Assembly: GCA_963514005.1 (NCBI GenBank)
Contig: OY740810.1
Coordinates: 20,026,001 to 20,090,000 of the forward strand
DNA: 64,000 nucleotides
From: Raja brachyura
Lineage: Eukaryota
Reading direction: 5' to 3'
Shown here: piece after piece, positions 21,820-63,830 of the stretch
Layout of the letters: every line of letters starts with the position of its first letter
How positions within the stretch are numbered: the first letter of the stretch is position 1
Made by a program: the position numbers and the translations under genes
The notes under the pieces: generated by a model
The model's input: only the letters and a program-made list of their open reading frames with translations
The model's database searches: none
Told to the model about the DNA's origin: nothing

Positions 21820-22127
21820 TTAACAGCTGGAGTGTGAGAGTGTGGCGGATATTTTCGAGGCTGCTCCTTGTTGAACTGTGCAGCAGTACGACTTCCCACT
21901 GCTCTTGACTGCGCCGCCCACCGTCAGGTAGATGCTGAGACTGAAGGTGTTGTCCGGGTCCCGCCTCCCTGCGTTGGTTTGCACCTCACTGCTCGGCGGA
22001 CTCCCGGCCACTGCCCAGCTGACGGTGGGGAAGCCCACGGACCAAGCAAAGGTGCTCGCTCCTTTAGCGGACATATCCTCGTCTGATGGCCACAGCAGTT
22101 TCACTGAAGGGCCGTGGAGCTGCGGAG
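21820..22127 (-). pseudogene. Sigma C exon of cluster B, ORF open but first domain Cys lost
   Basis: Intact acceptor; 308 nt versus 323 nt; APQLHGPSVKLLWPSDEDMSAKGASTFAWSVGFP...SYCCTVQQGAASKISATLSHSSC*; 3' UTR homologous to cluster A. Confidence 0.9.
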
Positions 22128-22454
22128 CTGCAAGGGACAAGAGAATACATGTTACAGTGTGTGGGGGGGGGGGGGGGCTCCTAACAAATACGGGGCAGAA
22201 TGTGTGACAGGGCCTCGTTCCTTTCAGCTGATGGAGACCTTGTCTAGACAGAAGCATTACAAATTTGACACACCTATTATTTGGGGATCCGTTTTTTAAT
22301 GTTATTCTTTACAAGCGGGGTTCTCATCAACCTCGCCCCACCTCACCCCAACCGAGGGTGGGAGAGAGGTAAAAACTGAAGACGGGCTGTGAGCCAGGAA
22401 AAGATTTTTGGTAGAAAGCTGACACGAAAGTTAAGGAAATGAATAACACACTCG

Positions 22455-22737
22455 GCGGCCGAGTTGCTACCTTACCAGAGACCTAGGTTCGATCCTGTCT
22501 GTCTGTACGGAGTTTGTACCCCCCCCCACCCCCGTGACCGCGTGGGTCTTCTCCGGGTGCTCCGGTTTTCCCCCACACCCGGTTTGAGGATTGAGGGTCA
22601 ATTGGCTTCGGTAAAAATTGTAAATTGACCCCTAGTGCGCGTGTCGGGTAGTATTACTCTGCAGGGATCACTGGTGGGCACGGACTAGGCGGTTGAAGAG
22701 CCTTTTTCCGCGCAGTATCTTTAAAATTCTAAAACTC
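22455..22737 (+). mobile_element. V-SINE in cluster B J-C intron
   Basis: V-domain core present. Confidence 0.8.
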
Positions 22738-22882
22738 GAAGTGCTCGGTTTTAAACTCCCCCGGAACAACCGCAAACTTCTTAAACGAGGCAGCCCAAGA
22801 GATGATTGGGCATTTATACAAATATTTTATTTTACCCAGTGGAGATATTTCAAGTCGCGTTTATTGCTATGCGCACAATTAC

Positions 22883-23943
22883 TAGCAATGTTACAAAATG
22901 TTGATATTTTAAAAATCAAGTCTGCAATTTATCCCATCAAATAAAGCATAAAAATAAGTTTAATTTGACACCTAATTCACTTTCATATTTTCAGTATTAA
23001 AAAGGTTATGGCCATTTTTATACTCGGTAATTAGCATCTTGTTCTCTATTGCCTTTCCATTGGCTTAACTCAAAAGCTGTGATCTAGGACAGTCAAAAGC
23101 CCATAGCTTTCTTAAAAATTAAGAGAACTGAAATAAATGTTCAGTTATTATAGATTGAAGCATTCTGAAACAAATATGAAACAATCTTACTTGGATGACC
23201 TGAAATTAAAGCATATAATTAGTTAGTTACCCAATTGTAGCTAATTACAAAATTCAATTACCAGACCTAATCATCTATCCATTTCTTAAGATAATTTTTT
23301 TTTTAAAGCCTAAGTGTCCAAATAACATTCACACAAGAATTCACAATATAACATGATTTTTAAATCTCATTGTCATGAATTTATAGGCCAATTGGAAGGA
23401 ATTTAGTGTTTAATGCCCGTAAATTAATGGGCATTTAAATCAGCTTGCGAGTGGGTTTTTATGGGACGAGATGGATTGGAACGTTCGGTTGCGTGAATTT
23501 AACCCCCATTTCGGCAGGAGAAATACTGCCGGTTCGCATGGGGAATAAGTCACCGTTTCGGAACATGAAAGTTTAATTAAGGTCATCTTAACAAACAAGT
23601 TTATATGAAAAAATAAACGGATTTCCTTTACCTGTCCCCGACCTAAAATCCGTCCCCATTGTCGGCGTTCACGGCATTAGAAGCTAATTTTTACTTTACT
23701 CCAGCGCTGAAATAGTAGGGCGATTAAAAAAAGAAAATCGCATACTGGCAGTCGGAAGGAATCTCCAGCAAAAGCTCGCACTCCGAGAAAATATAATTCA
23801 GGAAGGTAGGGGAAAACTGCATTTCAACCCCGCCCCATCTCCCCCCCCCCCCCCCCCCCCCCCCTCCTCAAAGGCGCAAAGTCGCGCACACGGCCAGTGA
23901 CAGACCTGCAGCCCCGCTGAAGGTACATTTTGTAACATACATA
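22883..23943. mobile_element. About 1.05-kb non-autonomous TIR element, copy 1
   Basis: Termini TAGCAATGTTACAAAA / TTTTGTAACATACATA; inverted homolog of 30780-31812. Confidence 0.82.
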
Positions 23944-24049
23944 ATAAGTACGGGGAGGTGGGTAAAGGTACAACAAAAATCTTCCATGCAGCAGCATCAC
24001 AGGCACAAACTCACTAAACGAAATATCAAAAATGTGAAAATCAAGATAT

Positions 24050-24430
24050 TAGACAATAGACAATGGGTGCAAGAGCAGGCCATTCGGTCCTTCGAGCCAG
24101 CACCGCCATTCAATATGATCATGGCTGATCATCCACAATCAGCACCCCGTTCCTGCCTTCTCGCCATATCTCGTGACTCCGCTATCTTTAAGAGTTCCAT
24201 CTAACTCTCTCTTGAAAGCATCCAGAGAATTGCCCTCCACTGCCTTCTGGGGCAGAGAATTCCACAATCACAATACTCTGGGTGAAAAAGTTTTTCCTCA
24301 TCTCCGTTCTAAATGGCCTATCCCTAATTCGTAAAGTGTGGCCCCTGGTTCTGGATTCCCCCAACATCGGGAACATATTTCCTGTATCTAGCGTGTCCAA
24401 CCCCTTAATAAATTGATATGTTTCTATAAG
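24050..24430 (-). mobile_element. CR1 3' end
   Basis: Highly similar to 4505-4880. Confidence 0.88.
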
Positions 24431-24819
24431 AGTTTTCGCCTGCTCCTTAACGTAATTCTTGCGTCTGCGCTGCATTCCCAGCCCTTTGCCGCGTTTGCTA
24501 AATTAAGGGAGCGCACCAGGAAAGGCTTCACGTCGCTCTGGCCCATGAGCAATTGATACAAGACCTCTTTAAAAACTCACATTATAAAATGTAATATAAA
24601 TACATTCCCGCCATTGTTAAGCAAACAGTTTAATAGTGTTGGAAATAGATACAACATGCTGGAGTAACTCAGGGGTCAGGCAGCATCTCTCGAGAAAGGG
24701 GATATGTGACATTTCGGGTCGAGACCCTTGTTCAGACCGAGAGTCTTGCAAGAGGGGAATTAGAGGTATAAAAGGGCACACACAACAAAAGAATGGAAGG
24801 TATGAGAGCACAAATCAAA

Positions 24820-25066
24820 GTGGCACAGTGCTAGAGTTGTTGCCTTTCAGTGCTTACAGCGCCAGAGACCCGGGTTCGAACTTGATCTGTACGGAGTTTG
24901 TATGTGCTCCCCGTGGGGTTTTCTCTGAGATCTTCAGTTTCCTTCCACACTCCAAAGACGTACAGGTTTGTTGGTCCCTAGTGTGTGTAAGATAGTGTTA
25001 CTGTGCGGGGATCGCTGGTCGATGGCCCGAAGGACCTAATTTCCGCGCTATACCTCTAAACTAAAC
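24820..25066 (+). mobile_element. V-SINE, internally deleted
   Basis: Head, partial core and CTAAA tail. Confidence 0.75.
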
Positions 25067-26107
25067 CATGATCGAGGAATGTTGGAGACCATGGTTTGTG
25101 ACCGTTGGCTGTGGAAAAGGATGACAACGAATAGATACAACAATGAAACTAGCAGGGCGGCTGGAGAAGTAGCGTTGTGGACATAAACTGCAAATTAACC
25201 ACATCCATTAATTCAGCACCGCTCTCCATTCAGCCTTGGAAAATAATTCCAGATAGTCTACATCAACTGTTCAAAACACCAGCAAAAGTTGTTTAAGGAA
25301 GGTGATAATCGCATTGCAAAGTCATAAAACGACAGAATTGGTTACTTCAACTGGACCAAAGAATAATCCAGCACTTATCACCATAATAGTATAAACTAAT
25401 TAACAGCCAGTGCAAAATTAACAACACAGAACATTTATTGCATGTTAAAAAGCTGAAGCAAATTTCCCAGAAATTTAGTGATAAAGCAGGAGAAGCAGGA
25501 ACATTGTTAAATTATACAGAATTAACGTTTCAGGTCGGAGTCGTACAGTCTCGAACCTGACACGACAATCGTTTCGCTTATACATGCTTGCAGTATTTGC
25601 AGCATTGATTTGATATTTCTAGCATTTATGTTTTTTTTAATTCTCATTAACTGTGGTAATAACATTTGATCCAATTTGTGATTCCAGCTGCCAAGACAGA
25701 TGTGTACAGCAATCCGTTCTTCCCCCGCACAATTAAAGCATGGAATAGTCTCCACCCTACTATAGTTGCCCAACCAGATGCAACTAAATTTAAGGTAGCT
25801 CTTTCTTCCCAAAAACCCTTTCTGGCTTAAGTCCTCCCTCCACCACCTCCAGTTTAAATTCCATTTGGAATACTTTGGAGGACCAAGAAAGCAAGAACCA
25901 AGATAGCAAGTAACACGGCCGCACCGAGTGAACAAGAGCGGGACGGAAAACACTGCCAAGTGTAATCAGCATTTCAATAGAAAAATACCATTAGTCGGAC
26001 GCAATGAAAGAACCCAAACGGAGTGAACAATTGTTAACAAGTGCTAACCACAATGACGCTTAGAAATGGCAGAAAGAATCTCCCGGCCACAGGGCTGAAA
26101 CTTATTA

Positions 26108-26699
26108 AGGGCCTGTCCCACCAGCATGCAACTCTATGCGATTAGCGCGACCTAACGTGGTCGCTTGAGCCGTCCGGCATCACGGGGCTGGTCCCACTTC
26201 GATCGCCGGAGCCGTGCGGAATTGTGCAGAGTTCGTCCCGAGTTCGTCCCAACACCGCGCGGGGCTCCGAAAAACTACTAACAATGTCCAAAAATTCCGC
26301 GCGGCAACGGCTTGTCGGCTCGCAGTCGCCTCGACATTTACACACCGCCCCGACATCGTGCCTCCGTGAACCTATTTGTAAGTGCCTCCGTGACCCACTA
26401 TGTATGTGGCTCCGTGGCCCTGTGTGTGTGTGTGCCTCGGTGCCCCTCTCTGTGTGCCCCGCTCTGTCCTGGCGAACTTACCTTACTCTTTGCTCCAAGT
26501 TCGCCTCACTTTGCGCCGTGTTGCGCCACTCACCCGACCTCCGCACGGCCCCGACTGCCGGTTTGGTTGCGCTTGCCGCATGCAGGCGCATGCTGGTGGG
26601 AACGGCCCTGTACAGGGGATCACCCGACCTCCGCGCGGCCCCCGCTGCTAGTTTGATCGCGTTCATCGCATAGAGTTGCATGCTTGTAGGACAGGCCCT
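26108..26699. mobile_element. PIF/Harbinger-type MITE
   Basis: About 40-bp TIRs (AGGGCCTGTCC...GCATGCAACTCTATGCGAT), TTA TSD on both sides, GC-rich internal repeats. Confidence 0.85.
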
Positions 26700-27142
26700 T
26701 TACTGTTTGGCCTCCGGCGAACACGTAGCCTTAATTTGACAGCAGTTTTAGCATCTTGCAATAACCACATTTAGTAGCGGAAAGAAGGGTCAACACTAAT
26801 GGACGAGAAAACACATCACTAATAAATAACAAATTATTAGATGCTAAATGATTTACATATAATTGATATCAGCGGAACCAGACAATAATCAGCGTATCTG
26901 TGTTAACATGTAATCCATGTCCTCGTTAACAGCGAAAACTGAGAGGATGGGGGAGGGGGGAGTGGGAGTGTGTGGGTGAGTGTGTATGTGTGTAGATAGA
27001 TATTAAAAAAAACTCATCAGCAGCAAAATAAAACTGCTGGTTGAAATGGGCGAGGCAAGCAGCATCTGCGGAGAGAATTGAGGAAACAATTCTTCCGATC
27101 CGGATACTGCATCAGGAGCGAGTCGAAAGGATTTCCCAGACA

Positions 27143-27166
27143 CTTGGTCCCTGGTCCGAACATCCA
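27143..27166 (-). pseudogene. J remnant of cluster B (WMFGPGTK)
   Basis: Aligns to the cluster A J and its intron flank (aagg.tttcccagacac); an 18-nt deletion removes LFVT and the splice donor; no heptamer. Confidence 0.88.
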
Positions 27167-27178
27167 TCAGCTCGATCC

Positions 27179-28048
27179 AGAGAATCCAGTAATCGGAGGT
27201 GCAAAGGGACTTAGCAAAGGGAGTCTGGTTCAGGACTCCCAAAAAGTTAATTTGGAAGTCAAATCGGTAGTAAGGAAGGCAAATTCAATGCTAGCATTTA
27301 TATCAAGAGGACAGGAATATAAAAAAAAAACAGAGATGTAATGCTGAGGCTCAATAAGGCGCTGGTCAGTCCGCATTTGAAGTACTGTGAGCAAATCTGG
27401 ACCCCCCATATCTGACGAAGGATGTGCTGGCTCTGGAGAGGTTCCAGCGAAGGTTTACAAAAATGATTCCATGAATGAGTGGGTTAGCATATGTTGAGCG
27501 TTTGACAGCACTGGGCCTCTGCTCGCTGGAGTTTTGAAGTTTGAGGCGGGACCTCACTGAAACGTAGAATAGTGAAAGGCTTGGATAGAGTGGATGTGGA
27601 GAGGATGTTTCCATTAAAGGGAGAGTCTAGAACTAGAGGTCATAGGCTCAGAATTAAAGGAAGTTCTTTTAGGAAGGAGATGAGGAGGAAATTTCTGAGG
27701 GTGAAAAATAAGAGGGTGAATCTGTGGGATTCTTTGTCACAGAAGGCTACAGAGGCCAATTCAATTTATATTTTTAAGGTGAAGAGAGACAAATTCTTGA
27801 TTAGAACGGGAGTGAATGGATATGAGCAGAAGGCAGGATAATGCGATTAGGAAAATGGGATTGGAAGGCAGAGGTCAGCCATAATTGAATGGCGGAGTGG
27901 ACTCAATGGACCGAATGGCCTAATTCTACTCCTAGAACTTGTGCACTGATTTTAGATGATCAGCGATGATCACATTGAATGGCAGTACTGGCTCAAAGGG
28001 CCCAATGGCCTCCTCCTGCACCTATTTTTCTATGAACTTGTGAACTTG
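27179..28048 (+). mobile_element. 5'-truncated CR1 LINE inserted antisense into cluster B V, with a second CR1 3' end nested in its tail
   Basis: VQDSQKVNLEVKSVVRKANSMLAFISRG, KGLDRVDVERMFPLKGESRTRGH; (AACTTGTG)n tail interrupted at about 27945-28033. Confidence 0.9.
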
Positions 28049-28204
28049 AGTAATGGAGGACCCGCTGAGGATTTGTTCCCAGTGAATGCTTACACTAATT
28101 AACATAATTGCCATCCTTTATATCGATGCTACATTTCAATGGGGCCGTGTCTCCTGGATTCACCGACACGGTAGCAGGTTGAGTCAGAGTCTGACACTCT
28201 TCAG
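28049..28204 (-). pseudogene. 5' half of sigma V exon, cluster B
   Basis: EECQTLTQPATVSVNPGDTAPLKCSIDIKDGNYVN*CKHSLGTNPQRVLHY; the conserved Trp codon is TAG; truncated at CDR2 by the CR1 3' tail. Confidence 0.92.
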
Positions 28205-28307
28205 CTGCAAAAGAGCAGGAATTCAACTTTAACCAATGACTCTTTAAAATGACCCCAGGAGCCCACATCACAACCGCTGGCGGGGCAGACTTGCCGTCTG
28301 TATTTAC

Positions 28308-28340
28308 AGCCCAGCCACTGCCAGAGATCAGTGTCCGCAT
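28308..28340 (-). pseudogene. Leader exon of cluster B, frameshifted
   Basis: Aligns to the cluster A leader with 11-nt and 2-nt deletions; 33 nt (phase 0 instead of 1); donor GTAAAT. Confidence 0.88.
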
Positions 28341-28415
28341 GGCTGCTGCCTTCAGCTCCCTGCCTCACTCGAGCCGCTGTGACAGACTGTGGACGCCGCT
28401 GCCGATGGAAACCAC

Positions 28416-28454
28416 TTATAGGGCCATTCACACAGGAAGGAAATCCGTGCAAAT
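28416..28454 (-). promoter_or_regulatory. V promoter of pseudo-cluster B
   Basis: ATTTGCAC (28454-28447) and TATAA (28420-28416) in sequence collinear with the cluster A promoter. Confidence 0.65.
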
Positions 28455-29283
28455 CAGGGTGGGTCACACTGAGCGACCAGAGCGCGGTTCTGAAACCGTC
28501 CCATTCGCCATCAGACACAGTCGGGTTGAGGCGGTGACAATGTCAGCTACTGACAGATCTGGTAAACACAACCCGTTGAGTAGGTCGCCACAATGGTCGT
28601 TTGTTTTCTGATATTCCCCTCCTTCTCCCTCCATTTTCCTGATTCAGTTGTTGCTACACTCCATCCCTCAGTCCGGAGATGCTCCTCACACCTCCTCACA
28701 GCTCGTCTTATCGATGGTTACAGACACTTTCTAGATTGCTGGGCCATTTCAGAGGGTCTTCGTGTGGGCCTGGAGATTGGACGAAGATGGCATGTGTCCT
28801 CCCCTCAAAGATTAATGAGCTCCCATCGGGTGTTTTGGTCTGTCCGACAGAATACCTTGACTAAGACCAAAGTTCGTCCGCACATTTGGACTGACATCAT
28901 AGATTTAGTTAATTAAACAGCACCAAACTGACACTTTAGCTTGAATTTTCCATGTCAACCAAGATTCCTGCATTTCCCATTTTCCTGCATTTGGTCTATA
29001 TACCTTTACATATTTCCCACCCGTGTACTTATCCAAATGCGTTTTCAAAGGTTATAATTCTCGCACCGACACAATCCCCTCTTGCAGCTCGATCCATATA
29101 CTCACCACTCTGTATCTGGGAATATGTGACTACCCCTCATGTCCCCTTTACATTTTTCACCTCTCACCTTAAATCTATGACCTCTTGACCTCTTGTATCA
29201 GACCCCACTATTCGGGGGGGGGGGGGGGGGGGGGAGACCGTGTCTCTAAATCAAACTAAACTAAACTAAACTAAACTGATGAG

Positions 29284-34820: not shown

Positions 34821-35143
34821 TTAACAGCTGGATTGTGAGAGTGTGGCGGATATTTTCGAGGCTGCTCCTTGTTGAACTGTGCAGGAGTACGACTTCCCAC
34901 TGCTCCAGTCTGCGCCGCCCACCGTCAGGTAGCTGCTGAGACTGAAGGTGTTGTCCGTGTCCCGCCTCGCCACGCTGGTTTGCACCTCACTGCTCGGCGG
35001 ACTCCCGTCCACTGTCCAGCTGACGGCGGGGAAGCCCATGGACAGTTTACTGACCAGGCAGACTAAGGTGCCCGCTCCTTTAGCGGATATCTCCTCGTCT
35101 GACGGCCCCAGCAGTTTCACTGAAGGGTCTGGGAGATTCGAAG
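34821..35143 (-). CDS. IgL sigma constant exon, cluster A (intact)
   Basis: Acceptor tcttgttcccattgcAG; ASNLPDPSVKLLGPSDEEISAKGAGTLVCLVSKLSMGFPAVSWTVDGS...DNTFSLSSYLT...YSCTVQQGAASKISATLSQSSC*. Both intradomain Cys, the Trp and the terminal interchain Cys are present; in frame with J. Confidence 0.96.
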
Positions 35144-36680
35144 CTGCAATGGGAACAAGAGAAGATAAGTTTCAGGTGACGGAAGAGCTCGGTCATCTCA
35201 GCGTTTGACAGAAGCGCGAGTGAGAGGTTGCAGCCTCCTTTAGTGGGGCCCCGAGTCTCACTGAGGGACGGAGCGGTGCCCATGGAGGTCGCCGCATGGA
35301 TCAACACTGGGGAACTAGAGATGTGAGGCAACGTTTCTGTTCTAGGGTCCTGCTGGCAACTCGCTGGTTCACAGCATCAGACGCTCGGTGACCTCACCAC
35401 CACTCCCGGGTTTACCCCGGCCTGTGCACATGAGCTGATTGCGGGAGAGTCCCACAATAGCTTCACGGCCTCAGTGCCTCGGGTTAGTGAGGGAAGGGAT
35501 CCATGATCCCACTACCGACCTCCAACCAGTGACCCCTCGCTCTGGGACCAACCCAGAGTGCTGGCGGGGAATCTCCTCCAACTGGTGAGGCTTTCCGGCA
35601 CCGAGTCATGAACGGAGCCGAGCCACACGCAGGAACCAGAAGGGCACACTCACTCACCGAGAATGTGCCCACTCACTGAGCCGCTAGCTACACGTTCCCC
35701 CTCTTCCACCTCTTCCCTTCGCCCCACCCCACCCATCACTGATGTCCCCTCTATCCCCCCCCCCCCCCCATCCCCCCAACTGCTGCCGGGAGAATAAACA
35801 CATCTCTAATTCTGCACTGCCCCAGAGAGCGAGGACAGCGGCTGCGCCCTGCTGAGCTTCACGGAGCTGGACAGAGCAGGGCGCTCTGTGATCTTTGACG
35901 GTGCCGAGGGATTCGTGTCCCATTCACTGTGAGGGAGGGCAGGTGCGATTCTCCACAGACCCGGAGCTCCGGCTCAGTCGGTGCAGCGACGGCAATGGTT
36001 CCCGCAAAGGAGCGGCGGTCAAGGGGATAGTTGGCAGGAGAGGAGACAAGGACTGGGGGACGGGAGAGGGGCATTTATTGGGCGGGTGCGTGCGGGAGAG
36101 TTCCGTCGTCACCGGGAGGATTGGAGTTTCCGTGAAATTCCGGGGGTGATTCCGCTGTGGGATCCTCATACAAGAACGTGAAACTTATAGTTCCACTGCC
36201 TCAACAACCCCGGGCTGTCTCCAGTCGCCAATGTTCTGTCCCCACCTTGAAACCGGACCCCACTTTAGGAAGCTGGGACCCCTCACGTTCACTTGGATCA
36301 AACCGGCACAAAGCGGATAAACTAACGGGAGTAACACCGCGCCAACTCAGAGATTAAGTTAGTCTCAGAAACACAATATTCACAAGCACATGCAGAGACA
36401 GAGCAACAACACCACAAAGAGAATTGAATAACCGAGAGTGTACCTATTTGAAATATCAAATAAGCTTCACGGAATGGAGAATTTGGTCATTAAAATACAG
36501 TAACAATTGGAACATAACTATATTTATTTGTACTGGTGCTGGACACAGAACTCAAATGGATTGCAAAATAAAAAAATTCTCGATAAAATTAGCCAGATAA
36601 TAATAAAGGTTAAAGTATTAGTTGCCAACTGGCCGTATTCTCGCCGTTAGTAATTGCGGGAAGGTTTCCCAGACACTTAC

Positions 36681-36717
36681 CTGTAACAAAGAGCTTGGTC
36701 CCTGGGCCGAACACCCC
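36681..36717 (-). CDS. IgL sigma J segment, cluster A (GVFGPGTKLFVT+g)
   Basis: FGxG motif, 37 nt, phase-1 donor ACAG|GTAAGT, heptamer on its 5' side; about 380 bp from the V end. Confidence 0.96.
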
Positions 36718-36756
36718 CACAGTGTGTGATTCCAGCTTCAGCCCTGACTGTTATTC
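36718..36756 (-). other. J recombination signal: perfect heptamer, nonamer unrecognisable
   Basis: + strand CACAGTG at 36718-36724 abuts J; after 23 bp the sequence is CTGTTATTC (2/9 match to ACAAAAACC). Confidence 0.7.
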
Positions 36757-37073
36757 CGGGCCCTGGAATCGGACAGAAAACACGGCCAGACGCTCCAGTT
36801 TCCGCATGAAAGTCGACTTCACACATCCCGAGTGTCCCCGCCGGTGTGGGGCGGGAAGGGATGAACTCACAGCCGCATCGCCAGGCTTGACATTAAACTG
36901 CAACGAATCCCGGCAGTGGGCGGCGGGACTCTGAAACTTCAAGAAAAAAGAAATATTTAAATTGCAAAGTATATATATATAAAGGATAAAATTAAAGCGA
37001 CTTTGTGAAGAATTGAAGATTAGAATGTTTTCATCGATTCAAAGATGTAAAGTGCATCATGTTTCTTGCCTCC

Positions 37074-37101
37074 AGTTTTTGTTTTACCTTCTCTCACTGT
37101 G
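37074..37101 (-). other. V recombination signal, 12-bp spacer
   Basis: Minus strand CACAGTG-agagaaggtaaa(12)-ACAAAAACT directly after the last V codon. Confidence 0.97.
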
Positions 37102-37427
37102 ACAGTAAGTACTGCTCGCTGTAAACCATTTCATACAGTAATAGACGGCAGCGTCATTCACCTCCGCCTTGCTTATGATCAACTGGTAAACGGTGGCGGC
37201 GCTGTTGGCTTTCGATGTGAAACGGTCGCTGCTAAACCCAGACCCATAGGTCGGGGCGGCGTGTCCGTGATAATACCGGAGGATCCATTGAGGAGTTGTC
37301 CCCGGTATTTGTTTGTACCAAAAAGAATATCCGGTATCCTTTATTCCGACATTGCATTCCAGCGTGGCCGTGTCCCCTGGATTCACCGACAAGCTCGCAG
37401 GTTGGATTACGGTCTGACACTCTCCAG
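37102..37427 (-). CDS. IgL sigma V exon, cluster A (intact, unrearranged)
   Basis: Acceptor ttctactttacAG; GECQTVIQPASLSVNPGDTATLECNVGIKDTGYSFWYKQIPGTTPQWILRYYHGHAAPTYGSGFSSDRFTSKANSAATVYQLIISKAEVNDAAVYYCMKWFTASSTYC. Both Cys and the core Trp are present. Short CDR1, long YYHxxxxPxYG CDR2 and YYCxKWF resemble sigma V regions as I recall them from Xenopus. Confidence 0.95.
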
Positions 37428-37531
37428 CTGTAAAGTAGAAGGAATTAAATGTTAACCATTGACTCTTTAATGTGACCCCAAGTTCCCACATCACACCCGC
37501 TGGCAAGGCTGACTTGCAGCCCTGTACTTAC

Positions 37532-37577
37532 AGCTCAGCCACAGTGCCAGAGACCAGAAAAAGCACAGCGTTTGCAT
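37532..37577 (-). CDS. IgL sigma cluster A leader exon (MQTLCFFWSLALWLS+t)
   Basis: ATG at 37577; 46-nt hydrophobic exon ending in phase 1 at GTAAGT; 104-nt intron to the V acceptor; splices in frame to give MQTLCFFWSLALWLSSGEC|QTVIQ. Confidence 0.93.
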
Positions 37578-37653
37578 CGTTACTCAGTTTCCTGCCTCAC
37601 TCCAGCCGCTGTATCTGTGACAGAATGTGGACGCCGCTGCCGATGGAACCCAC

Positions 37654-37692
37654 TTATAGAGCCATCCACCCAGGAAGCAAATGCGTGCAAAT
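37654..37692 (-). promoter_or_regulatory. V promoter, cluster A: octamer variants and TATA
   Basis: Minus strand ATTTGCAC (37692-37685) and ATTTGCTT (37682-37675), Ets core CAGGAAG (+37671), TATAA (37658-37654) about 80 bp upstream of ATG; ATTTGCAC, Ets and TATA are also kept in cluster B. Confidence 0.75.
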
Positions 37693-38214
37693 CATGGCGG
37701 GTCACACAGAGCGACCGGAGCGCGGATCTGAAACCCTCCCATTCGCCATCAGACACGGTCGGGTTGAGGCGGTGACGTTGTCAGCCACTGGATGGTCTGT
37801 TGAACACAACCCGTGAATGAGCAGGTCGTTTGTTGTCTGATATTCCACAAGTTCTCCCTCCATCCCCCGAGTCAGTGGTTGCAACACTCCATCCCTCACT
37901 ACAGAGATGCCTCTCACACCTCCAGTCACGACAAGGTGGGACAGTGCAGTCTTCCTGTCCCACATCAATAATCCAGACACAAGAGACTGCAGATTAATGA
38001 GCATAAATGAAACTGCCGCTAGATCTCAGTGGGTCCGGCAGCGTCAATAGAGGGAAACCCCTCTTGCCCAGAAACGTTGTCTGTCTATTCGCTCCACAGT
38101 CGCTGAATTCCTTCAGGAGTCTATTTTGTTACTCAATAATTTAGACATTGAGTTAAAACTCACCCTTACTGATGATGTAGTGTATTCAATTCAATTTGAG
38201 GACACAACATTGGG

Positions 38215-39630: not shown

Positions 39631-40439
39631 TAGATAGTAGTCACAGTGACGCCACTTCCTCCCTTTCTGGGAGAAGATCTACCATATGTACCTGGACGTT
39701 CTCTATCTCCAATCCCATCTGTGGCCTCTGCAGTGACCCAGCAACTCAACAGTTGCCCGTGACCAATAATGGAAGACCCTCGCCCATCACATTCTCCAGG
39801 CATCTCTGGATGGACAGCAATTGTCGGCTCTGCCAGTGACAGCCACATTCAAAAGTGTGGAAATCAGAAGTTGACCAGAGTTTCTGTGTCTGAGGCAAAG
39901 CGTTGAGTAAATGTAGTACTGGAAACAGAGTCCCACTGAGTTTACACAAGTATTTGTCTTCAACAAAGACCCAGGAATGAGTTCATTGTGGGCAAGTAAG
40001 TCAATAGGTAATTGAATAATGATGGTATTTTGTATGTTTCCCTGACTTGGTAACTGAGAGTGACTAATTAAAAAAAAGCATGGCAGGGAATCTCTGAACC
40101 GTGCGAATGGATACCCAGTGAAAAAGGGGGACTTGGGATGCTTCCCAATTACTGGGGAATCTCAGGTAGAGAATGTGTTGCCACCTGAAGCAGTTTGAGC
40201 ACTGGGTCTGAAGCTCGAGCAACAACAGTCCATCCCCAAGGCCGAATGTTTCATGTGCAGCAGGTTTCAGGGACTGGTCATCCTATAGGTAAAGTGAGCG
40301 CAGGCAGCGGGCAAGGGGGAAACCATCAGAGAGACAAAGCAGCAGCAGATTGGTCAGGACATCCCTGATGGCATCCTGCTCTGTAACTGAATGATATTCA
40401 GGACACTGAATGGAGAATGTTGCCCTTGAGGATGGAGCC

Positions 40440-47550: not shown

Positions 47551-50500
47551 TATACTACTCAAAGTTAAAGTGGGTCTGCTAGACTATGTAAAATCAGGAT
47601 ATGTATAATAAATTGAACTAATTTCAATGCAGAAATTGGATTGGTGGAGGCAAGGTTGCAGAGAGTTGGTACTGTACCAATCAGTTTGCAGTATTTCAAA
47701 TTGGCTTCATCAAGCTTGAGTACATTATGAATGGAGAAGAATTCTAATCTAATCCAGTGGGAAATAACTCCTTGGGATATTGGATAATATTCACTTGTGT
47801 TAATACAAGGAAGCTAACATTTCTCATGCTTCAACATTGTAAATAATAATTGCTACTTCATTTAAAGAAAGAGGTTGGAACTGTTTAAATCAGCTGCCAC
47901 CTGAGTGTGAAAATAACAAACATCTGTGGGCCAAGCAGGAAACGAGCTGTTATTTTAAGGAGAGGGGCTGTCCAGAACTGAAACAAGACGTTTAGATCTG
48001 CCTTTTATACCACTTTATCCAAATATCACAGTCTCTGTTCCACCCAGGACGTTGCTTTAAGTATCTATCAGGTACTTGACTACTTAAAGGGACATTACAT
48101 CCGGTGCTCTCTTTGAGCTATAACAGTCAGCACAAGAATTGCTTTAGATATTTTGCCATATTGGTTGCCTGATTAACTTCAACCCACTGACTTTTCAGTG
48201 AATTCTGGGGGGAGGAAATTTTAATTAGGGCTGATGGCATAGAGGGCTGAAAGTTAATTCATCCCCATTACATAGTCAATGCCTGGTTTACTTCCCACTG
48301 TATTCAAAGGAATTGAGAAGTGATAGGAAAGAACTGCAGATGCTGGTTTCAATCTGGAGAGAAGGAATGGGCGAAGGGTCTGGCCCCAAAACGTCACCCA
48401 TTCTTTCTCTCCAAAGATGCTGCCTGACCCACTGAGTTACTCTAGCATTTTGTGTCTACCTTCAAATTGGGAAATTAAGTGAGTTGTACAACGGGGCTTG
48501 AATTCAATCCACATATTTAATCCACACAAAGTTAAACTGCCCTTGTGAGTCCTTCCATTCTCATGACCTTCCTTCTATGATTATTTTTTGGCCAAATCTA
48601 CCCTCCGTCTAAAATCTGTGAATCAGCCTGGTCTGTGCATCAGCAACATCAGTCTCACTGATCTAGTGACCACTCCTCCCTTGGGTCACCGTACAGTGAG
48701 TGTGGACATGCAAGTTCAAGTGAAACCAATTGGCCCAGTGCTGCCCTCCTCTCACACCCACCACTCCGGAACACCGATGGTGAGCAGGTGGACAAATCCT
48801 AAGTGCGTTTGATCTGTAATCCTGGTCATCTCAAGGAAGATCTCATGGCATAAGACCGTGCACCTTCCTATTCAGCACACTCTCCCACCACAGTCAAAGC
48901 TATTTCACGCAGAGATAGTCAATTGCCCATGTCTGTATCTACATATAATGGTTATAAAGACACACAAGGAAACTGTCTCCCTTGGAATAAAGACAAAAGC
49001 TAAAATAAAGACAAAAGGCCACATCCCGTACCTCAAATTATAGCATTGGAACAGTGTATAATCTGCCTCAGGATAAGCAGCATAATGGGCACTTGAGAGC
49101 TGTGGAGCTGAAGGATAGGAGGGTGCCCATGAGACCACAAAAATAGCCAAGTCTAAACCTCAGGTTAATGTTATCTAACATATAACCAAAATTAAAAGGC
49201 AACTCAATTCATTGATGCACTCAAAATTGGAGCACTCAGCCTTGTTACCTGCTGGAGAGTGAAATGGCTCAAGCACAGGTCTACAGATTTGACATCCATG
49301 ACATATTCAGCAATCCCTTCACTTTTCATGGTTCTTCAAGCTCAACAACAGCAACCTGCATTAAGAAATACCATTACAAAATTGGAAAAACTGCAAGACC
49401 ATTTTCTGGATTTTGACGCAGAGATTAACAATCGCACCACGTGTTTGAAATCAAAGTAAATCATTTTGTGTTCAATGTGGGCAGGTTAATAAAGCCATGC
49501 CCTGGCCTTGTGGTATCCCAAGGGGTGAGTGCGTGAGCTGGAGAGGGTAAAAGTGAAGAGCTGCTGGCAGTAAGGGAAAAGTCATGTTGGAGTCAAAGCA
49601 CAAACCTGGGGTAACGTTATACCTGGAGTAAGATGGTTACAAGAAGCAAGAGGCAAACAAACTCTCAAAGAGAAAGGGGTCACAGGCAAAATGAAACTAT
49701 CCCCGTGCACAAAGGACTGAGACCTTACCAGATATAACAATGTTTAATCTTGCTGTTCTCTGCTCAAGGACAGATGAGGTAAATGTTATTTTGTCCCACA
49801 GAACTGGATGTGACTGAGGGAGAGATTTTGCACAATTTAATCAGAAACTGAATTACAAGACTCCTTACACTTGAGAACGATGTGAATGAATGATCGGTGA
49901 ACTTGAAGTATTGCAGAAATTTGGAAATATTTGAAGTCAATTTAATTTACACAAAAAGAAAAAATGTGGGGGAGAGAAAGAGAGAGAGAGGGAGAGCTAA
50001 AGGGTTGTTGACTTTAACTGTTCTGCGCTGGGAGGAAGTTGAGGTATTTGTTATGTCCCAAAGAGTTGGATGTGACTGAGATAAAGACCTTGTGCAATTT
50101 AATCATAAATTTAAGTTATAGAACCTTTTACATTTTAGGAGGCACTGTCATTGTGAAAATGCATTGTGTGAGGAAGAGAGCTCCCTCTTCCTCTAGTCTT
50201 TGGAATTAGTGTTAAAGATGTATTTTACTGGAGATCTTTAAAATATTTTATCCTTTATTTATTCCTTAAGAATCCCAATAAAGGAAAACTAAAGGAGGGA
50301 TTTGTTTTTTATTTCCCATTTTAAAAGGTTGTTTTTTCCTTCCCTCTCTTTTCTTTTTCTTCATTTATTATCTGAACATCTAAAAGTATATATCATTAAA
50401 TGTCCTTGAATCTGAATTACTCCTTTGGGAAATAACTTGGGACAGTTGGGTGAAATCTCAAATATTGACTTCCAATTGCAAATACTTTATCCTCGAAAGG

Positions 50501-53500
50501 CTAGTCTTGATATTTTTTATAATTTTTGCATTTCTAACCATATTCCAGTTTTTCAAATGTGTGTGTGTTCAACGACAAAGCATAAATATCTGGAACAAAC
50601 ACAACATTCAACATAGACTGAAGAATGGTCTCGACCTGAAATGTCACTGATTCCTTCTCTCCAGAGATGCTGCCTGCCCCTTTGAGTTACTTCAGCATTT
50701 TGTGTCAAATTCAGGGTTCAACTTTGAAAAAGTGATTTTCTTCAATGCCCATGTAAGGCATTCAGAATTTGTATTCCACAGATCAGTTTCAGCTACAAAG
50801 ACTTAAAAACTGCAGTTTCCAACAAATGGCTCATCATCATTGAATAGAGTTCTGAAAATAAAACGTTGGTTTTGATTTGGTTACAGGTTAAAGAGCTTTA
50901 GACTCTGGAATTCAATTATTTGGTCTGTGTTTTTAATCCCGAGTTTATGAAGATAGCAAGTTCCTAGGGGAAATTCATACTGAGCATCAGTGAGTTGGTC
51001 ACTTTAGAATGAGTGCCACTGTTGACAACAGCTTGCATCACTTTACGGATAATTGATTGGTATTTAGCCATATTAAATTTGTCCTTATTTTTGTGGATTG
51101 GTCATAACTTTGCATTTTTCTAGGGCAAAAGCTCAAGCTGCTTCATCTGAGCAGCCAAGATTAAAGAATGTTCCTCATGCAATGTGCTTTGAAAGGATGT
51201 TCATATTATTTAAGGGGATTGAAGAAGGGATGGTGTCCAACCATACAATTTAATCATCTTGGGGTTCTGAAGATGTAACAATTGGTGCACTTTGATATAT
51301 CATTGATTTATGAAGCAAGAGTGGAAGGGATAAAGTGGGTGGACTAGTGCTGCCAGGATGGACTCAAACTCGATGCTGATTATTTTGTCTGTGTAACAAA
51401 ATAAAACACGCTACCCTAGCATGTGTTTTATTTTCACAAGGATTCTTGGAATGCCTCAATGCCAATAACTACGTCAGCTCTTCCCCGAGTAATCAGTCAA
51501 TGGAAAGGAAAGGAAAATCATGTCACCAACTCACACTGAGAATGCCAATGCAGGTAACAATTGAAGATAGGCACAAAGTGCCGGAGTAACTCAGTGGGTC
51601 AGGCAACATCTCTGAAGAAAAAAGATGGGTGACGTTTCAGGTTGGGACCCTTCTTCAGTCTGAGGCCAATTGGCCTCCCTCTTTCCTGTGAAATGTGAAA
51701 ATATGGAATATTTAAAGTATGCAGGAATTCAGAACAAATCCTTTCACCTCTGTCTGATATTATGTATCAGTTTTATATCTGCCTTGATATAAGTGCAACA
51801 AATTACATAAGGTCAAATTATATTTTACCATCTACATCCTCCAGCTTCACTTTCTAAATTCTGTTTGAGATTCCTCCAAACTGCCCCAAACCATTAACTA
51901 AATTAATAATTAAGAATCAATTGTATTTGATCAGGATTTTCATTCTTTGAATTCAAGAAACACACATAGAGTACCAAGTTAACCTGAAAAGCAAAATGGA
52001 TTGTACAATTCAGGTTATTATTTCTTGCAAAACTATAGTCAGGATATCAAATCCATGCCTGAGTTCTCCTTCATTTGGGACCAATGTGAATAACTGTAAA
52101 ACATAAAAAACATTTAAATTCTACAATCTAATAAATCTTTATCACTCATGCCAAAATGGAGGAAGGGAGAATATGTGGGCAGAAGCTGAAAGAGTTCTCT
52201 CCTTAATGCAGTTCAGTCACATTGTGGCATTGCCTCCGAAAATGTAAGAGGTTCTGCAATTTACTTTCCCATTAAATTACACAGAATCTTTCCCTCAGTC
52301 TCATCCAATTCTTTGAGTCATAATAACAATACATTCAACTTCCTCCTTGTACAGAACAGCAGTCAACTGCATTTTAAGTTCCTCTCTCTCTCTCTCTTCC
52401 CCCCTCTCTCTCTCCCTCTTTCTTTCTCTGTTTGTCACTTGCTATGTCTCTCAATCCCTTGATCTTCCTCTATATGTGCAAAGCAAACTGATTTCAAAAA
52501 ATCCCATAACTCTGCAATGCTCTAATCTCACAGATCAATCACACACATCACTCTCAATGGTGAAGCGTGCAGGGAAACCTACAACACAATAATTCACATT
52601 TCAAAAGAGAATTTTGAATGGACAGGCTTTAAAAAGAAAAGAATGATAGAAGATACTGATCCTGCAAACTCTCACATTCAAACACTCCACATCAGCCAGA
52701 ATTCCAGTAGCCTCCAAGCATCCTCACTTTCTAATCTTCCAACCTGTTTCCTGGATCTGACTGATTGAAGACTCAATTAGGTCCTCGGTGCACTGGGGTC
52801 AACCCCTTGGGATGTGGAAATTGAATAAACCTTTGACTGTAGTGGGAGGGTGTACCTTCTGGGAGGTTGCACCGGCTTATTGGCAATATTCTTGGCAATG
52901 CAAGGTCATCTTTCTCTAGATGTCCTGCAACACACAGCAGAACTCAGCCAGTATTTCCTAACTCCTGCTCACCCTCAATGACCCCGATTGCTGGGTGTGA
53001 GAGGAGGGCAGCACAATCCCATTAGTTTCACTTGAACTTGTCTCTCCATACTCAATGTCCGGCTTCTCAGTATTGCAGAAATTTGGGAATATTTGACGTC
53101 AATTTAAATTACACAAAGGGAAGAAAATGTAGGAGAGAGAAAGCGAGAGAGAGTGAGAGCTAAAGGGTTGTTGATTTTAACTGTTCTGCACTGGGAGTAA
53201 GTTGAGGTATTTGTTATGTCCCAAAGTTGGATGTGACTGAGAGAAAGATCTTGTGCAATGTAATCATAAATATAAGTTGTAGAACCTCTTACATTTTAGG
53301 AGGCACTGTCACTGTGAAAATGCATAGTGTGAGGAAGAGAGCTCTCTCAGCTTCCACCCACTGATACCCTCGTCCTCTAGTCTTTGGAATGAGTGTTAAA
53401 GATTTATTTTACTGGAGATCTTTAAAATATTTTATCTTTGTTTATTCCTTAAGAATCCCAATAAAGGAAAACTAAAGGAGGGATTTGTTTTTTATTTCCC

Positions 53501-56330
53501 ATTTTAAAAGGTTGTTTTTTCCTTCCCTCTCTTTTCTTTTTCTTCATTTATTATCTGAACATCTAAAGTATATATTACTAAATGTCCTTTAATCTGAATT
53601 ACTCCTTTGGGAAATAACTTGGGACAGTTCGGTGAAATCTCAAATATTGACTTCCAATTGCAAATACTTTATCCTCGAAAGGTTAGTTTTGATATTTATT
53701 ATGCTTTTTGCATTTCTAACCATATTTCAGTTTTTTAAATGTGCGTAATTTTCACTAAAAGCATAAATGTATGGAACAAACACAACATTCAACATAGACT
53801 GAAGAATGGTCTCAACCTGAAATGTCACCCATTCCTTCTCTCCAGAGATGCTGCCTGTCCCGTTGAGTTACTCCAGCATTTTGCGCATATATTCAACGTT
53901 AAACTTTGAAAAAGTGATTTTCTTCAATGCCTATGTAAGGCATTCAGAATTTGCATTCCACAGATCAGTTTCAGCTGCAAAGACTTAAAAACTGCAGTTG
54001 CCAACAAATGACTCATCATCACTGAATAGAGTTCTGAAAATAAAACGTTGGTTTTTATTTGGTTACAGGTTAAAACAGCTTTAGATTCTGGAATTCAATT
54101 ATTTGGTCTGTGTTTTTAATCCCGAGTTTATGAAGATAGCAAGTTCCTGGGGGAATTCCAAACTGGGCATCAGTGAGTTGGTCACTTTAGAATGAGTGCC
54201 ACTGTTGACAACAGCTTGCATCACTTTACGGATGATTGATTGGTATTTAGCCATAATAAATTTGTCCTTATTTTTGTGGATTGGCCGTAACTTTGCATTT
54301 TTCTAGGGCAAAAGCTCAAGCTGCTTCATCTGAGCAGCCAAGATTAAAGAATGTTCCCCATACAATGTGGTTTGAAAGGATCTTCATATTATTTAAGGGG
54401 ATTGAAGAAGGGATGGTGTCCAACCATACAATTTGATGAACTTGGGGTTCTGAAGATGAAACAATTGGTGCACTTTGATGTATCATTGATTTATGTAGCA
54501 AGAGTGGAAGGGATAAAGTGGGTGGATTGGTTCTGCCAGGATGGACTCAAACTCGATGTCGGATTTTCTGTCTGTGTAACTAAATAAAACTTGCTACCCC
54601 AGTTCCTCTCTTTCTCTCTCTCACTTGCTCTCTCTACCCCCCCCCCCCCTCCCTCTTTCTTTCTCTGTATCTCACTTGCTATGTCTCTCAATCCCTTGTT
54701 CTTCCTCTCTTTGTGCAAAGCAAACTGTTTTTTAACAATCCCATAACTCTGCAATGCTCTAATCTCACAGACTAGTCGCACACATCACTCTCAATGGTGA
54801 AACGTGCAGGGAAACCTAAAACACAATAATTCACATTTCAAAAGAGAATTTTGAATGGACAGACTTTAAAAAGAAAAGAATGATAGAAGATACTTATCCT
54901 GCAAACTCTCACATTCAAACACCCCACATCAGCCAGAACTCCAGTAGTCTCCAAGCATCCTCACCTTCTAATTCCGAACTTCAAAGCCCCAGAAGCATCT
55001 TCCAACCTGTTTCCTGGATTGAAGACTCAATTAGGTCCTCGGTGCACTGGTAGAAGGTCAATCCCTTGGGATGTGGAAATTGAATACCTCTTTGACTGTA
55101 GTGGGAGGGTGTACCATCTGGGAAGGTGCACCGGCTTATTGGCAATGGTCTTGGCAATGCAAGGTCATCTTTCTCTAGATGTCCTGCAACACACAGCAGA
55201 ACTCAGAAAGTATTTCCTAACTCCTGCTCAACCTCAATGCCCCCGATTGCTGGTAGTGAGAGGAGGGCAGCACAATGCCATTGGTTTCACTTGGACTTGT
55301 CTCTCCACACTCAATGTCCAGCTTCTCAATGGAAGAGGGGCCAATGGGTCAGTGGGACTGACGCTGTTGATGCACAGATTTCAAAAACGAGAAGATCAAT
55401 TCATCAAAGGAAAATAATAAAATAACATGATGAGGTCACAAATATACATAGGATCAGTTGGATGGATGTAAAGTGGATGACATTGAATTGATGCTGCATT
55501 CTGCATCGAACTACACCAATTTCTCTGATTTCAGTGGAAAGGAAACCAAGCTTTTTAAATGTAATGGAGGTGAACTTGCTGTCATAATTTAAACCATCAA
55601 CATGAATTAACATTTCCTCCCAGAGAAGTCAGAGAAAAATCTATGGAGTGAAGTTATTCAGGAAAACAACATGCCAGAGTTTCTGAAGCAATTCTTGTTC
55701 TGACTGCCACAACTCGAGAACACCAGAGAATATATCCCTTTAACCAGTCAAGTGCTTGATTAATACTCATAGTAACATTTATGATAGAAGAGAAACTATG
55801 ATATTTGGATAATATGGTATAAAAGGCACAATCTAAACATCTTGCCTCAGTTCCGGGCAGCCCCGCTCCTTAAAATAACAGCTCGTTTCCTGCTTGGGCG
55901 GCAGATGTTTGTTATTTTCACACCCAGAGCGCAGCTGATTTCAACTGTACCAGACCTCTTTCTTTAAACGTCATGGACATTTTTATTTAAAAAGTTGGAG
56001 CATTGAAAAGAATGATTCTTCCACATTTACACTGCTCAATAATGCCGGAATATCCCATGGAGTTCTCTCCCACTAGATTAAGTCACAGACCTCCTTCATC
56101 ACAATATAAACCAGTGTGCTGAAGCTGATCTGAAATACTGTAAACTGATTGGTGTAGTACTAACTATCTGCAGCCTTGGCTCAATGAATACCATTTCTCC
56201 ATTAAAATTAACACATTTGACTTCAATATCCTGATTTTATTTGAATTAGATTTATCACACTGATCAATTTTACGCATGAGTAGAATATTTGACCAACAAG
56301 GCACTACTGTTCATTGATAGCATATTAAAA
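47540..56330. repeat. Ancient large inverted duplication (arms about 47540-50200 and 52190-56330)
   Basis: 47540-48900 pairs with 56330-55090; 49860-50190 pairs with 52570-52190. Confidence 0.85.
49907..55328 (+). repeat. Younger tandem duplication: unit 1 49907-53068, unit 2 53069-55328
   Basis: Near-identical text with junction CTTCTCA|GTATTGCAG; unit 2 lacks about 960 bp (51417-52376). Confidence 0.92.
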
Positions 56331-63070: not shown

Positions 63071-63499
63071 ACCACAACAATCAGATGGAGTAAAGGAAGG
63101 GCAGAGGGAACAGGGTGCCACACAGGTGCACTGACCCATCTGCCACTTCTTTGTCTCTCTAGTAGTTTCCCGCTCCCCCACTGCCAGCACTCACTTTAGG
63201 TGGAGGATGACCGCCTCCTGAAACCTGCTGCACATGAAACATTCGGCCTTGGGATCAAGGTCCATTTGAGCATGGACTGTTGGTGTTGGAGCTCCAAACG
63301 CAGAGCTTGAGCTGATCTAGCTGGCATTACTTCCTGTATCTTAGCTTGTCCAGGAATCAGGAAGCATTGTATGTTCCCAGACCCCACTGTGCACCCATTT
63401 CGATGGCTTTGAGATTCCTTCCCATGCCTCTTTTTATTAGTCCTTCTCAATTAATAAAGAATTCAATCAAAACACTATGACTATTCAATAGACCATTGC

Positions 63500-63830
63500 C
63501 CAACTTCAACCAAACAAACTTATTTAATTCCGTGGGTCTTTGTTGAAGACAACTCTTGTGTAACTCACTGGGACCCTGTCTCCTGCTCTATGTTTACACA
63601 ACGTATTTCACTAGACCCTGTGACTTATCAAGCTTTAATTTTCCACATTCTTGGAATACGGATGCCACTGGCAAGGCCAGTTGTTGCCATTCCAGTGGTG
63701 CCTGGACACATTAATGGCTGAGACCGTTCTATTGGTGGCTGTAGATCTCTGACTGGGTTGCTTGGAAACTTCTGAGGCAGACAATGGGACTGGAAACATT
63801 CACAGGGAAGCATGGGAGGTTCCCTCCACA
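63500..63830 (-). repeat. Dispersed repeat (possibly an LTR), inverted homolog of about 39640-39980
   Basis: GGGTCTTTGTTGAAGACAA pairs with TTGTCTTCAACAAAGACCC, with collinear flanks. Confidence 0.65.

Follow-up and report, generated by a model that had tools for sequence, protein, structure and literature searches.

A conserved core of about 170 bp is found upstream of each of two immunoglobulin sigma light-chain clusters of Raja brachyura, and it is likely to be a B-cell enhancer for the cluster to which it belongs, one that may double as a distal promoter facing the V segment. The window analyzed here is a stretch of 64,000 nucleotides (GenBank assembly GCA_963514005.1, contig OY740810.1, positions 20,026,001 to 20,090,000), and positions are counted from its first letter. 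The core lies at a corresponding position in each half of a mirrored V-J-C duplication, has two copies in the genome, changes more slowly than its surroundings, and retains its motif words. Our reading of its role rests on these properties of the sequence.

As seen in Table 1, cluster 1 lies in the window as a split V-J-C gene on the minus strand. A protein search of the genome located a second V on the plus strand, 1.4 kb beyond the window end, and this cluster 2 is intact, with leader, 12-spacer RSS, J, and C all present. The two clusters point away from each other around a mirror axis near 51.4 to 51.9 kb, and the gene bodies and the mirrored upstream pieces both fall on a single mirror diagonal; the whole V-J-C cluster was duplicated in inverted orientation together with its upstream DNA, the element included. 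An earlier note on this DNA had described an old inverted duplication, and the alignment of the mirrored arms confirms it. The same note had placed twin enhancers 10 and 18 kb from a single V, which needs correction, since the second cluster lies beyond the window and there is one arm per V, at 10.4 kb (arm 1) and 9.4 kb (arm 2) from the start codon of its own V.

The identification of the neighboring segment as a sigma V holds, with a C domain that matches named sigma proteins. Two named proteins from skates match this domain of cluster 1 at 92% and 90% identity, and proteins named sigma from nurse shark and horn shark match it at 80% and 78%, respectively; the other light-chain C exons of the genome are at most 49% identical to the sigma C. 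Because the C domain is closest to named sigma chains, the isotype was assigned as sigma; the split between V and J is a second feature of sigma membership that is present. A PDB search with the V returned an Ig V domain match. In a V tree built from 34 of the 56 proteins of the homologue search, both V genes fell inside the skate clade (support 100/98), with V1 beside Amblyraja and Rhinoraja proteins; the tree, whose dating may be blurred by conversion, gave no support for an origin predating the skates.

Several other features of the gene bodies were observed. The gene bodies of the two clusters are 84 to 100% identical. A stretch of 202 intronic bases before the C exon (35145-35346 and window-equivalent 67431-67632) is 100% identical between clusters, compared with 72 to 75% for the upstream DNA, which indicates recent conversion between the inverted gene copies. 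The J recombination signals have a good heptamer and a poor nonamer in both clusters (about 36725-36760 and window-equivalent 66055-66095), and the RSS scan picked up no 22/23-spacer signal at the J of either cluster. A third, decayed sigma copy is without the core, its duplication unit stopping about 350 bases upstream of the start codon. The V promoters (37580-37800 in cluster 1, piece L003 in cluster 2, and 28330-28560 in the decayed copy) have no perfect octamer: the word differs by one mismatch in cluster 1 and in the decayed copy, and a short deletion has removed it from cluster 2. By comparison, the octamer is perfect in 5 of 5 promoters examined from one other light-chain array.

Table 1. 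Positions of the features discussed (window numbering unless another sequence is named; for mirrored features the arm 2 position follows that of arm 1)
Feature	Position	Strand	Basis
Conserved core, arm 1, with sigma cluster 1	47860-48030		Arm alignment
Conserved core, arm 2, inverted, with sigma cluster 2	55799-55968		Arm alignment
Whole alignable arm 1 (mirror of 56287-55517)	47551-48315	+	
Whole alignable arm 2	55517-56287	-	
E-box CAGCTG	47891-47896; arm 2 55932-55937	+	Word search
22-bp perfect block, with forkhead-like word (47915-47922) and E-box CATCTG (47921-47926)	47905-47926; arm 2 55902-55923	+	
32-bp perfect block, with Ets word CAGGAAAC (47936-47943) and MEF2-like TTATTTTAAG (47950-47959)	47931-47962; arm 2 55866-55897	+	
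Initiator-like TCAGTTC, predicted +1 at 47979 (arm 2, 55849)	47975-47981; arm 2 55847-55853 on +	-	
TATA box TATAAAAG facing V1	48002-48009; arm 2 55818-55825 on +	-	
Octamer-like word ATTTGGAT, one mismatch, just upstream of TATA box	48017-48024; arm 2 55803-55810	-	
Second candidate element: 37-bp perfect mirrored block, E-box and two GAAAC words	40235-40271		Mirror alignment
Sigma cluster 1 leader, V exon, and 12-spacer RSS	37074-37577 (V 37422-37108)	-	Protein/RSS search
Sigma cluster 1 J segment with heptamer	36681-36724 (J about 36717-36681)	-	
Sigma cluster 1 C exon	34821-35141 (C 35141-34824)	-	Protein identity
Sigma cluster 2 V exon	G000:C32:20091393-20091707 (window-equivalent from 65393)	+	Outside window
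Sigma cluster 2 C exon	20093636-20093953 (window-equivalent to 67953)	+	Outside window
Decayed third sigma copy: V with stop, J remnant, gapped C	21823-28552	-	Tandem
Flanking genes: RRM gene, presumably ELAV-like (left); arrestin-domain gene and PHD-finger frame (right)	L041:9030-9374, L012:7999-8505, L013:175-5506, L016:5986-6444		

The two arms are 73.5% identical over 781 columns, in line with the 65 to 75% estimated by eye in the earlier note. Compared with this value for the whole arm, sliding 50-column windows show a clear peak of 84 to 94% from 47862 to about 48035, over the core. The perfect 32-bp and 22-bp blocks lie exactly where they had been described, and permutation gave a p of 0.008 for the longest run and of 0.00045 for the 150-column window of highest identity. 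Perfect runs are not confined to the core, because a longer one, of 37 bp, lies in another mirrored segment. Between the arms, 149 of 168 aligned bases of the core are identical (88.7%) versus 1265 of 1719 (73.6%) in six other mirrored upstream segments, each of 72 to 75% ungapped identity (Fisher p = 3e-6, with the core limits picked from the same alignment). The 19 mismatches between the paralogues are scattered across the core and clustered between motifs. In the flanks, there are perfect blocks of 12 bp (47676-47687) and 13 bp (48132-48144), the former of which matches the CCAAT box well and lies some 300 bases downstream of the predicted start described below.

A high-copy repeat would have told against a regulatory core, and the core was found in two genome copies only. 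The arm and the exact 22-bp block likewise have 2 copies each, all of them the arms themselves, in a DNA search that may skip very common words, and a genome search with the motif pattern returned the two arms only. The 22-bp block had 0 matches in a metagenome scan, and no Rfam family matched the core. None of 51 open frames scanned between the two V genes passed the Pfam cut-off, and no comparable single-copy mirrored element was found downstream of the C exons. The earlier note had proposed a search for the core near other Ig clusters: a two-sequence nhmmer profile found no homologue in 400 kb around 14 of the other light-chain V genes of the genome (best E 2.7), in a search confined to light-chain clusters.

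The 37-bp block was also observed in its own right. Its GAAAC words are 17 bases apart, its mirror lies within 63108-63706, and it is 2 to 3 kb upstream of each V; its segment has 2 copies in the genome, and a 20-bp block lies nearby at 39954-39973. This block may correspond to a second regulatory element or to a conversion tract.

The arm or part of it was found in 20 runs from eight related organisms; no RNA run was among those listed, which carries no information on expression. The orthologue comparison comprises 5 of these 20 runs, all found through this stretch, with the arm-2 flanks and the 40.2-kb block outside it. Orthologous arm-1 contigs showed differences at 37 of 831, 35 of 797, 48 of 799, and 46 of 799 bases. 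When core and flank were separated, with the flank counts taken from per-contig totals, the differences in arm 1 were 3/179 versus 34/652 in organism D (one-sided p 0.026), 2/179 versus 33/618 in organism E (one-sided p 0.007), and 4/179 versus 44/620 in organism G (one-sided p 0.008), which has an additional 7-base deletion at 47871. The core rate is thus 0.21 to 0.32 of the flank rate in D, E, and G (3 to 5 times fewer differences); the three tests share one branch, to this genome, and the relatives are close (about 94 to 96% identical), so that the depth of conservation is shallow. The variable spots are mostly spacers (47898-47900 and 47927-47933), with free variation at 47898-47900 and 47927-47930. 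No change is listed for the 22-bp block in any covering contig, and the 32-bp block changes at 47933 (twice, to different bases) and 47944 only, outside the Ets and MEF2-like words; in organism E, the arms were collapsed over this block into one 32-base contig.

All of the motif words listed in the earlier note (CAGCTG, CATCTG, AACAAACA, CAGGAA, TTATTTTAAG, CTCCWTGGGA, and CCAAT) were found in both arms. The E-boxes and the Ets, forkhead-like, and MEF2-like words are retained in both copies, as had been claimed, and the CCAAT and EBF-like words lie outside the high-identity core, in the flank of background identity. The E-box CAGCTG has one change, at its free central base, in arm 2 of organism D; a third E-box at 47898, present in arm 1 only, is not kept. 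The MEF2-like word has one mismatch to the MEF2 consensus YTAWWWWTAR and is invariant in every contig compared. With the commonly known consensus motifs, and counting from both arms, 22 of 27 words of the core are kept in the mirror copy versus 46 of 202 in the background, a retention that the higher identity by itself raises. Windows with two E2A-type E-boxes and Ets, MEF2-like, and forkhead words number 3 in 464 kb, two of which are these arms, and around other light-chain clusters there are 2 in 400 kb, a rarity inflated by criteria that came from the element itself. The octamer-like word ATTTGGAT falls within a 14-bp perfect block and may be functional.

Two other readings of these words did not withstand the comparison. 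An EICE had been reconstructed from two words; neither core has an exact EICE, the completing bases vary, arm 2 of organism G has neither half, and a one-mismatch EICE word in arm 1 is not kept in arm 2. The invariant portion of the supposed EICE is GAACTGA, and the V-facing strand reads as the initiator-like TCAGTTC. The proposed EBF-like site at 47768 has more than one mismatch to the consensus in both arms and is altered at 47774 in organism D. The NF-kB consensus has no match in either core.

A TATA box accompanies the initiator-like word in both arms, in the same orientation relative to V, a pair absent from the earlier account. The TATA box TATAAAAG is a perfect match to the TATA-box consensus TATAWAWR, its first T lies 30 bases (arm 1) and 31 bases (arm 2) before the predicted +1, the central A of the initiator-like word, and no change is listed in relatives for it or for the initiator-like word. 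A TATA box and an initiator 29 to 32 bases apart occur at 31 sites in 864 kb (0.006 per 171 bp), and with the strict TCAGTY initiator at these two sites only; since the pair was spotted after many motif types had been inspected, we treat it as a lead. If the element is functional, the chances that this pair starts a sterile sense transcript towards V appear about evenly balanced.

These features raise the alternative that the core is mainly a promoter together with the first 120 bases of a non-coding transcript towards V, with little distal enhancer action. The perfect TATA box and initiator-like word, at a 30/31 spacing, in the same V-relative orientation and unchanged in relatives, would fit such a promoter, as would the flanking differences that preserve pyrimidines on the transcribed strand and the location of the conserved bases, mostly downstream of the predicted start. 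However, little is conserved upstream of -50; the conserved stretch reaches about 20 bases upstream of the TATA box and about 120 bases downstream of it, which is unusual for a promoter, and the E-box, Ets, and MEF2-like words would fall inside the transcript. In addition, the core has no Rfam family, and no splice donor or polyadenylation signal is common to both arms; acceptor candidates occur on either strand, but a shared donor is absent. Taken alone, a promoter is an unlikely explanation of the core.

The resemblance between the arms might also reflect an old gene-conversion tract in otherwise neutral DNA, the motifs being a chance by-product. The gene bodies show conversion, a 37-bp perfect run occurs in another mirrored segment, and the organisms compared are close relatives. 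Nevertheless, an old tract would not slow later change, and core differences are 3 to 5 times rarer in 3 of 3 organisms counted; the 19 paralogue mismatches, moreover, are spread over the core and cluster between motifs, and we regard this explanation as improbable. Since the old tract predicts no slowing, the slow change of the core after the arms separated argues for purifying selection. Overall, slower change than in the flanks, both between paralogues and between orthologues, points to a non-coding element under purifying selection.

Recent gene conversion of the core was considered separately and is ruled out by arm-specific differences shared among the organisms compared. Arm 2 is present in 4 of 4 runs compared, and at the 85% cut-off its alignment in organisms G and H was limited to 47876-48040. 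Four organisms and this genome have in common the arm-2 diagnostic substitutions at 47904, 47927, 47930, 47963, 47971, 47982, 47983, and 47989, as well as an insertion at 47875. Because these differences are shared, the arms have been diverging separately since before the organisms split. An identity peak produced by recent conversion, with no conservation across species, had been named as an outcome contrary to the regulatory reading; the slow core in relatives and the shared arm-specific differences were found instead.

MEF2 and E-box words together also fit muscle enhancers, and the core could be a non-lymphoid enhancer (for example, of that type) or an element of a flanking gene, carried along by the duplication. 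The MEF2-like and E-box words are consistent with this, and the RRM gene, which from its sequence we take to be ELAV-like, ends about 10.6 kb left of the window. Yet both copies are retained, between two Ig genes and at a matching distance from their own V, and the flanking genes found are, to the left, this RRM gene and, 98 to 105 kb or so to the right of the window, an arrestin-domain gene (the scan took in 147 of 162 long open frames and may miss short-exon genes). A non-lymphoid role has, in our view, slightly less to commend it than the old conversion tract.

That the core is a short coding exon, read from the strand opposite V, is very improbable. An open frame common to both arms runs from about 47888 to 47993-47995, where the two have the same stop, and of the 5 codons changed after 47960, 4 are synonymous, but this excess is not significant against randomly placed changes (p 0.10 and 0.33); the start codon is absent, the acceptor is weak, indels at 47871-47875 break the frame, and no homologue was found among longer proteins (weak evidence) or elsewhere in the genome. 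Least probable of all is a microRNA or another structured small RNA in which the two perfect blocks would pair as arms: a 9-bp inverted repeat forms a single hairpin on the V-facing strand in both arms, with the variable sites mostly in its loop, but the arm-1 hairpin (-8.6 kcal/mol) equals the median of genomic 58-mers (z -1.15 and -2.14), comparable inverted repeats occur at 0.06 per 171 bp, no change affects both sides of the stem, and there is no Rfam match.

As described above, a B-cell enhancer belonging to each cluster is the explanation that we favor, and its site composition can be compared with known systems. According to PMC3972084, E-box, MEF2, and Ets sites are the site classes needed in amniote Ig enhancers, and the amniote Ig lambda enhancer (human, mouse E3-1/E2-4, and chicken) is both a transcriptional enhancer and a hypermutation-targeting element. 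Like that enhancer as presented there, the skate core is a short non-coding module of a light-chain locus in which a CAGCTG E-box is followed by an AT-rich MEF2-type word, with CTGAAAC 18 bases after the latter in skate arm 1 only, and, as in the mouse lambda locus, it is duplicated together with its genes (PMC3972084). Unlike the lambda enhancer, the skate core has neither an NF-kB site nor a PU.1-IRF4 composite, its MEF2 word has one mismatch, its Ets word stands before and not after the MEF2 word, and it lies 9 to 10 kb 5' of V, whereas the lambda element is 3' of C. Lacking an EICE and an NF-kB site, and located 5', the skate core falls outside the lambda enhancers; the likeness is one of site classes, and homology is not claimed.

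The kappa Ed and 3' enhancers are both located 3' of C. In the same source, Ig kappa Ed contains the human-mouse conserved CTATTTTAAG, which shares 9 of 10 bases with the skate word and lies among E-boxes and an Ets-type site; this ten-base likeness may be due to chance, the source figure having no MEF2 label for it (PMC3972084). The kappa 3' enhancer contains CATCTG, and, unlike the skate core, both kappa enhancers carry NF-kB and PU.1/IRF sites (PMC3972084).

The skate promoter, as proposed, would resemble the promoters of germline transcripts in lying sense upstream of rearranging segments and opening them for RAG. Germline (sterile) promoters such as the kappa distal germline promoter, I-mu, and TEA are in sense orientation upstream of rearranging segments; those known are found close to J or D and not 5' of V, and most have no TATA box. 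In cartilaginous fish, according to a review (PMC5192425), promoters appear only at V segments and sterile Ig transcripts are present in neonates. The clusters agree with the elasmobranch sigma miniclusters in having one V, J, and C each, with V and J split and flanked by RSS; the available parts of these accounts describe no enhancer and no head-to-head gene arrangement, and the word "enhancer" is absent from their main text (PMC4279169, PMC12227049).

How the proposed B-cell enhancer might act can be outlined from its sites. The two E-boxes would be bound by E proteins, the GGAA word by an Ets factor, and the AT-rich words by MEF2 and forkhead factors. Once assembled, the complex would make contact with the V promoter, which has an imperfect octamer in cluster 1 and none in cluster 2, making the V-J interval accessible to RAG and, at a later stage, driving expression. 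More tentatively, the TATA/initiator pair would add a sterile sense transcript towards V. Speaking against the enhancer reading are the mismatch in the MEF2-like word, the absence from the core of the EICE and NF-kB sites that define lambda enhancers, the conversion active in the locus, and the lack of a core homologue near the 14 other light-chain V genes. In a more specific version, which is doubtful, each cluster would have an enhancer-promoter with a TATA/initiator start 10 kb upstream of V, and the sterile sense transcript made there would open only that cluster for rearrangement.

If this version were true, the accessibility switch would lie 5' of V, whereas tetrapod light-chain loci have intronic and 3' enhancers, and it would explain in physical terms how cartilaginous fish could activate one cluster at a time. 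For sharks, one proposal is that exclusion reflects the infrequent assembly of promoter-enhancer complexes on independent miniclusters (PMC2435157). A 170-bp element with defined sites, one per cluster, would make the promoter-enhancer exclusion model directly testable. It would also show that light-chain control through E-box, Ets, and MEF2 sites is as old as jawed vertebrates, and the IRF and NF-kB parts may be dispensable here. A literature search in which few subscription journals were covered found no named Ig enhancer in cartilaginous fish.

Further observations concern the center of the mirror and the remaining light-chain loci. At the mirror center (49907-55328), younger direct duplications overlie the old inverted similarity (49907-51419/53069-54602 at 92% and 52382-53069/54618-55328 at 88%), and the same region has EICE words (51502-51516) and a perfect octamer (53949). 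Other light-chain arrays lie on C30 at 11.87-11.99 Mb and 12.54-12.93 Mb, in opposite orientations and about 550 kb apart, on C29 at 1.5-2.4 Mb, and on C47 at 2.2-2.4 Mb, where two clusters are also opposed.
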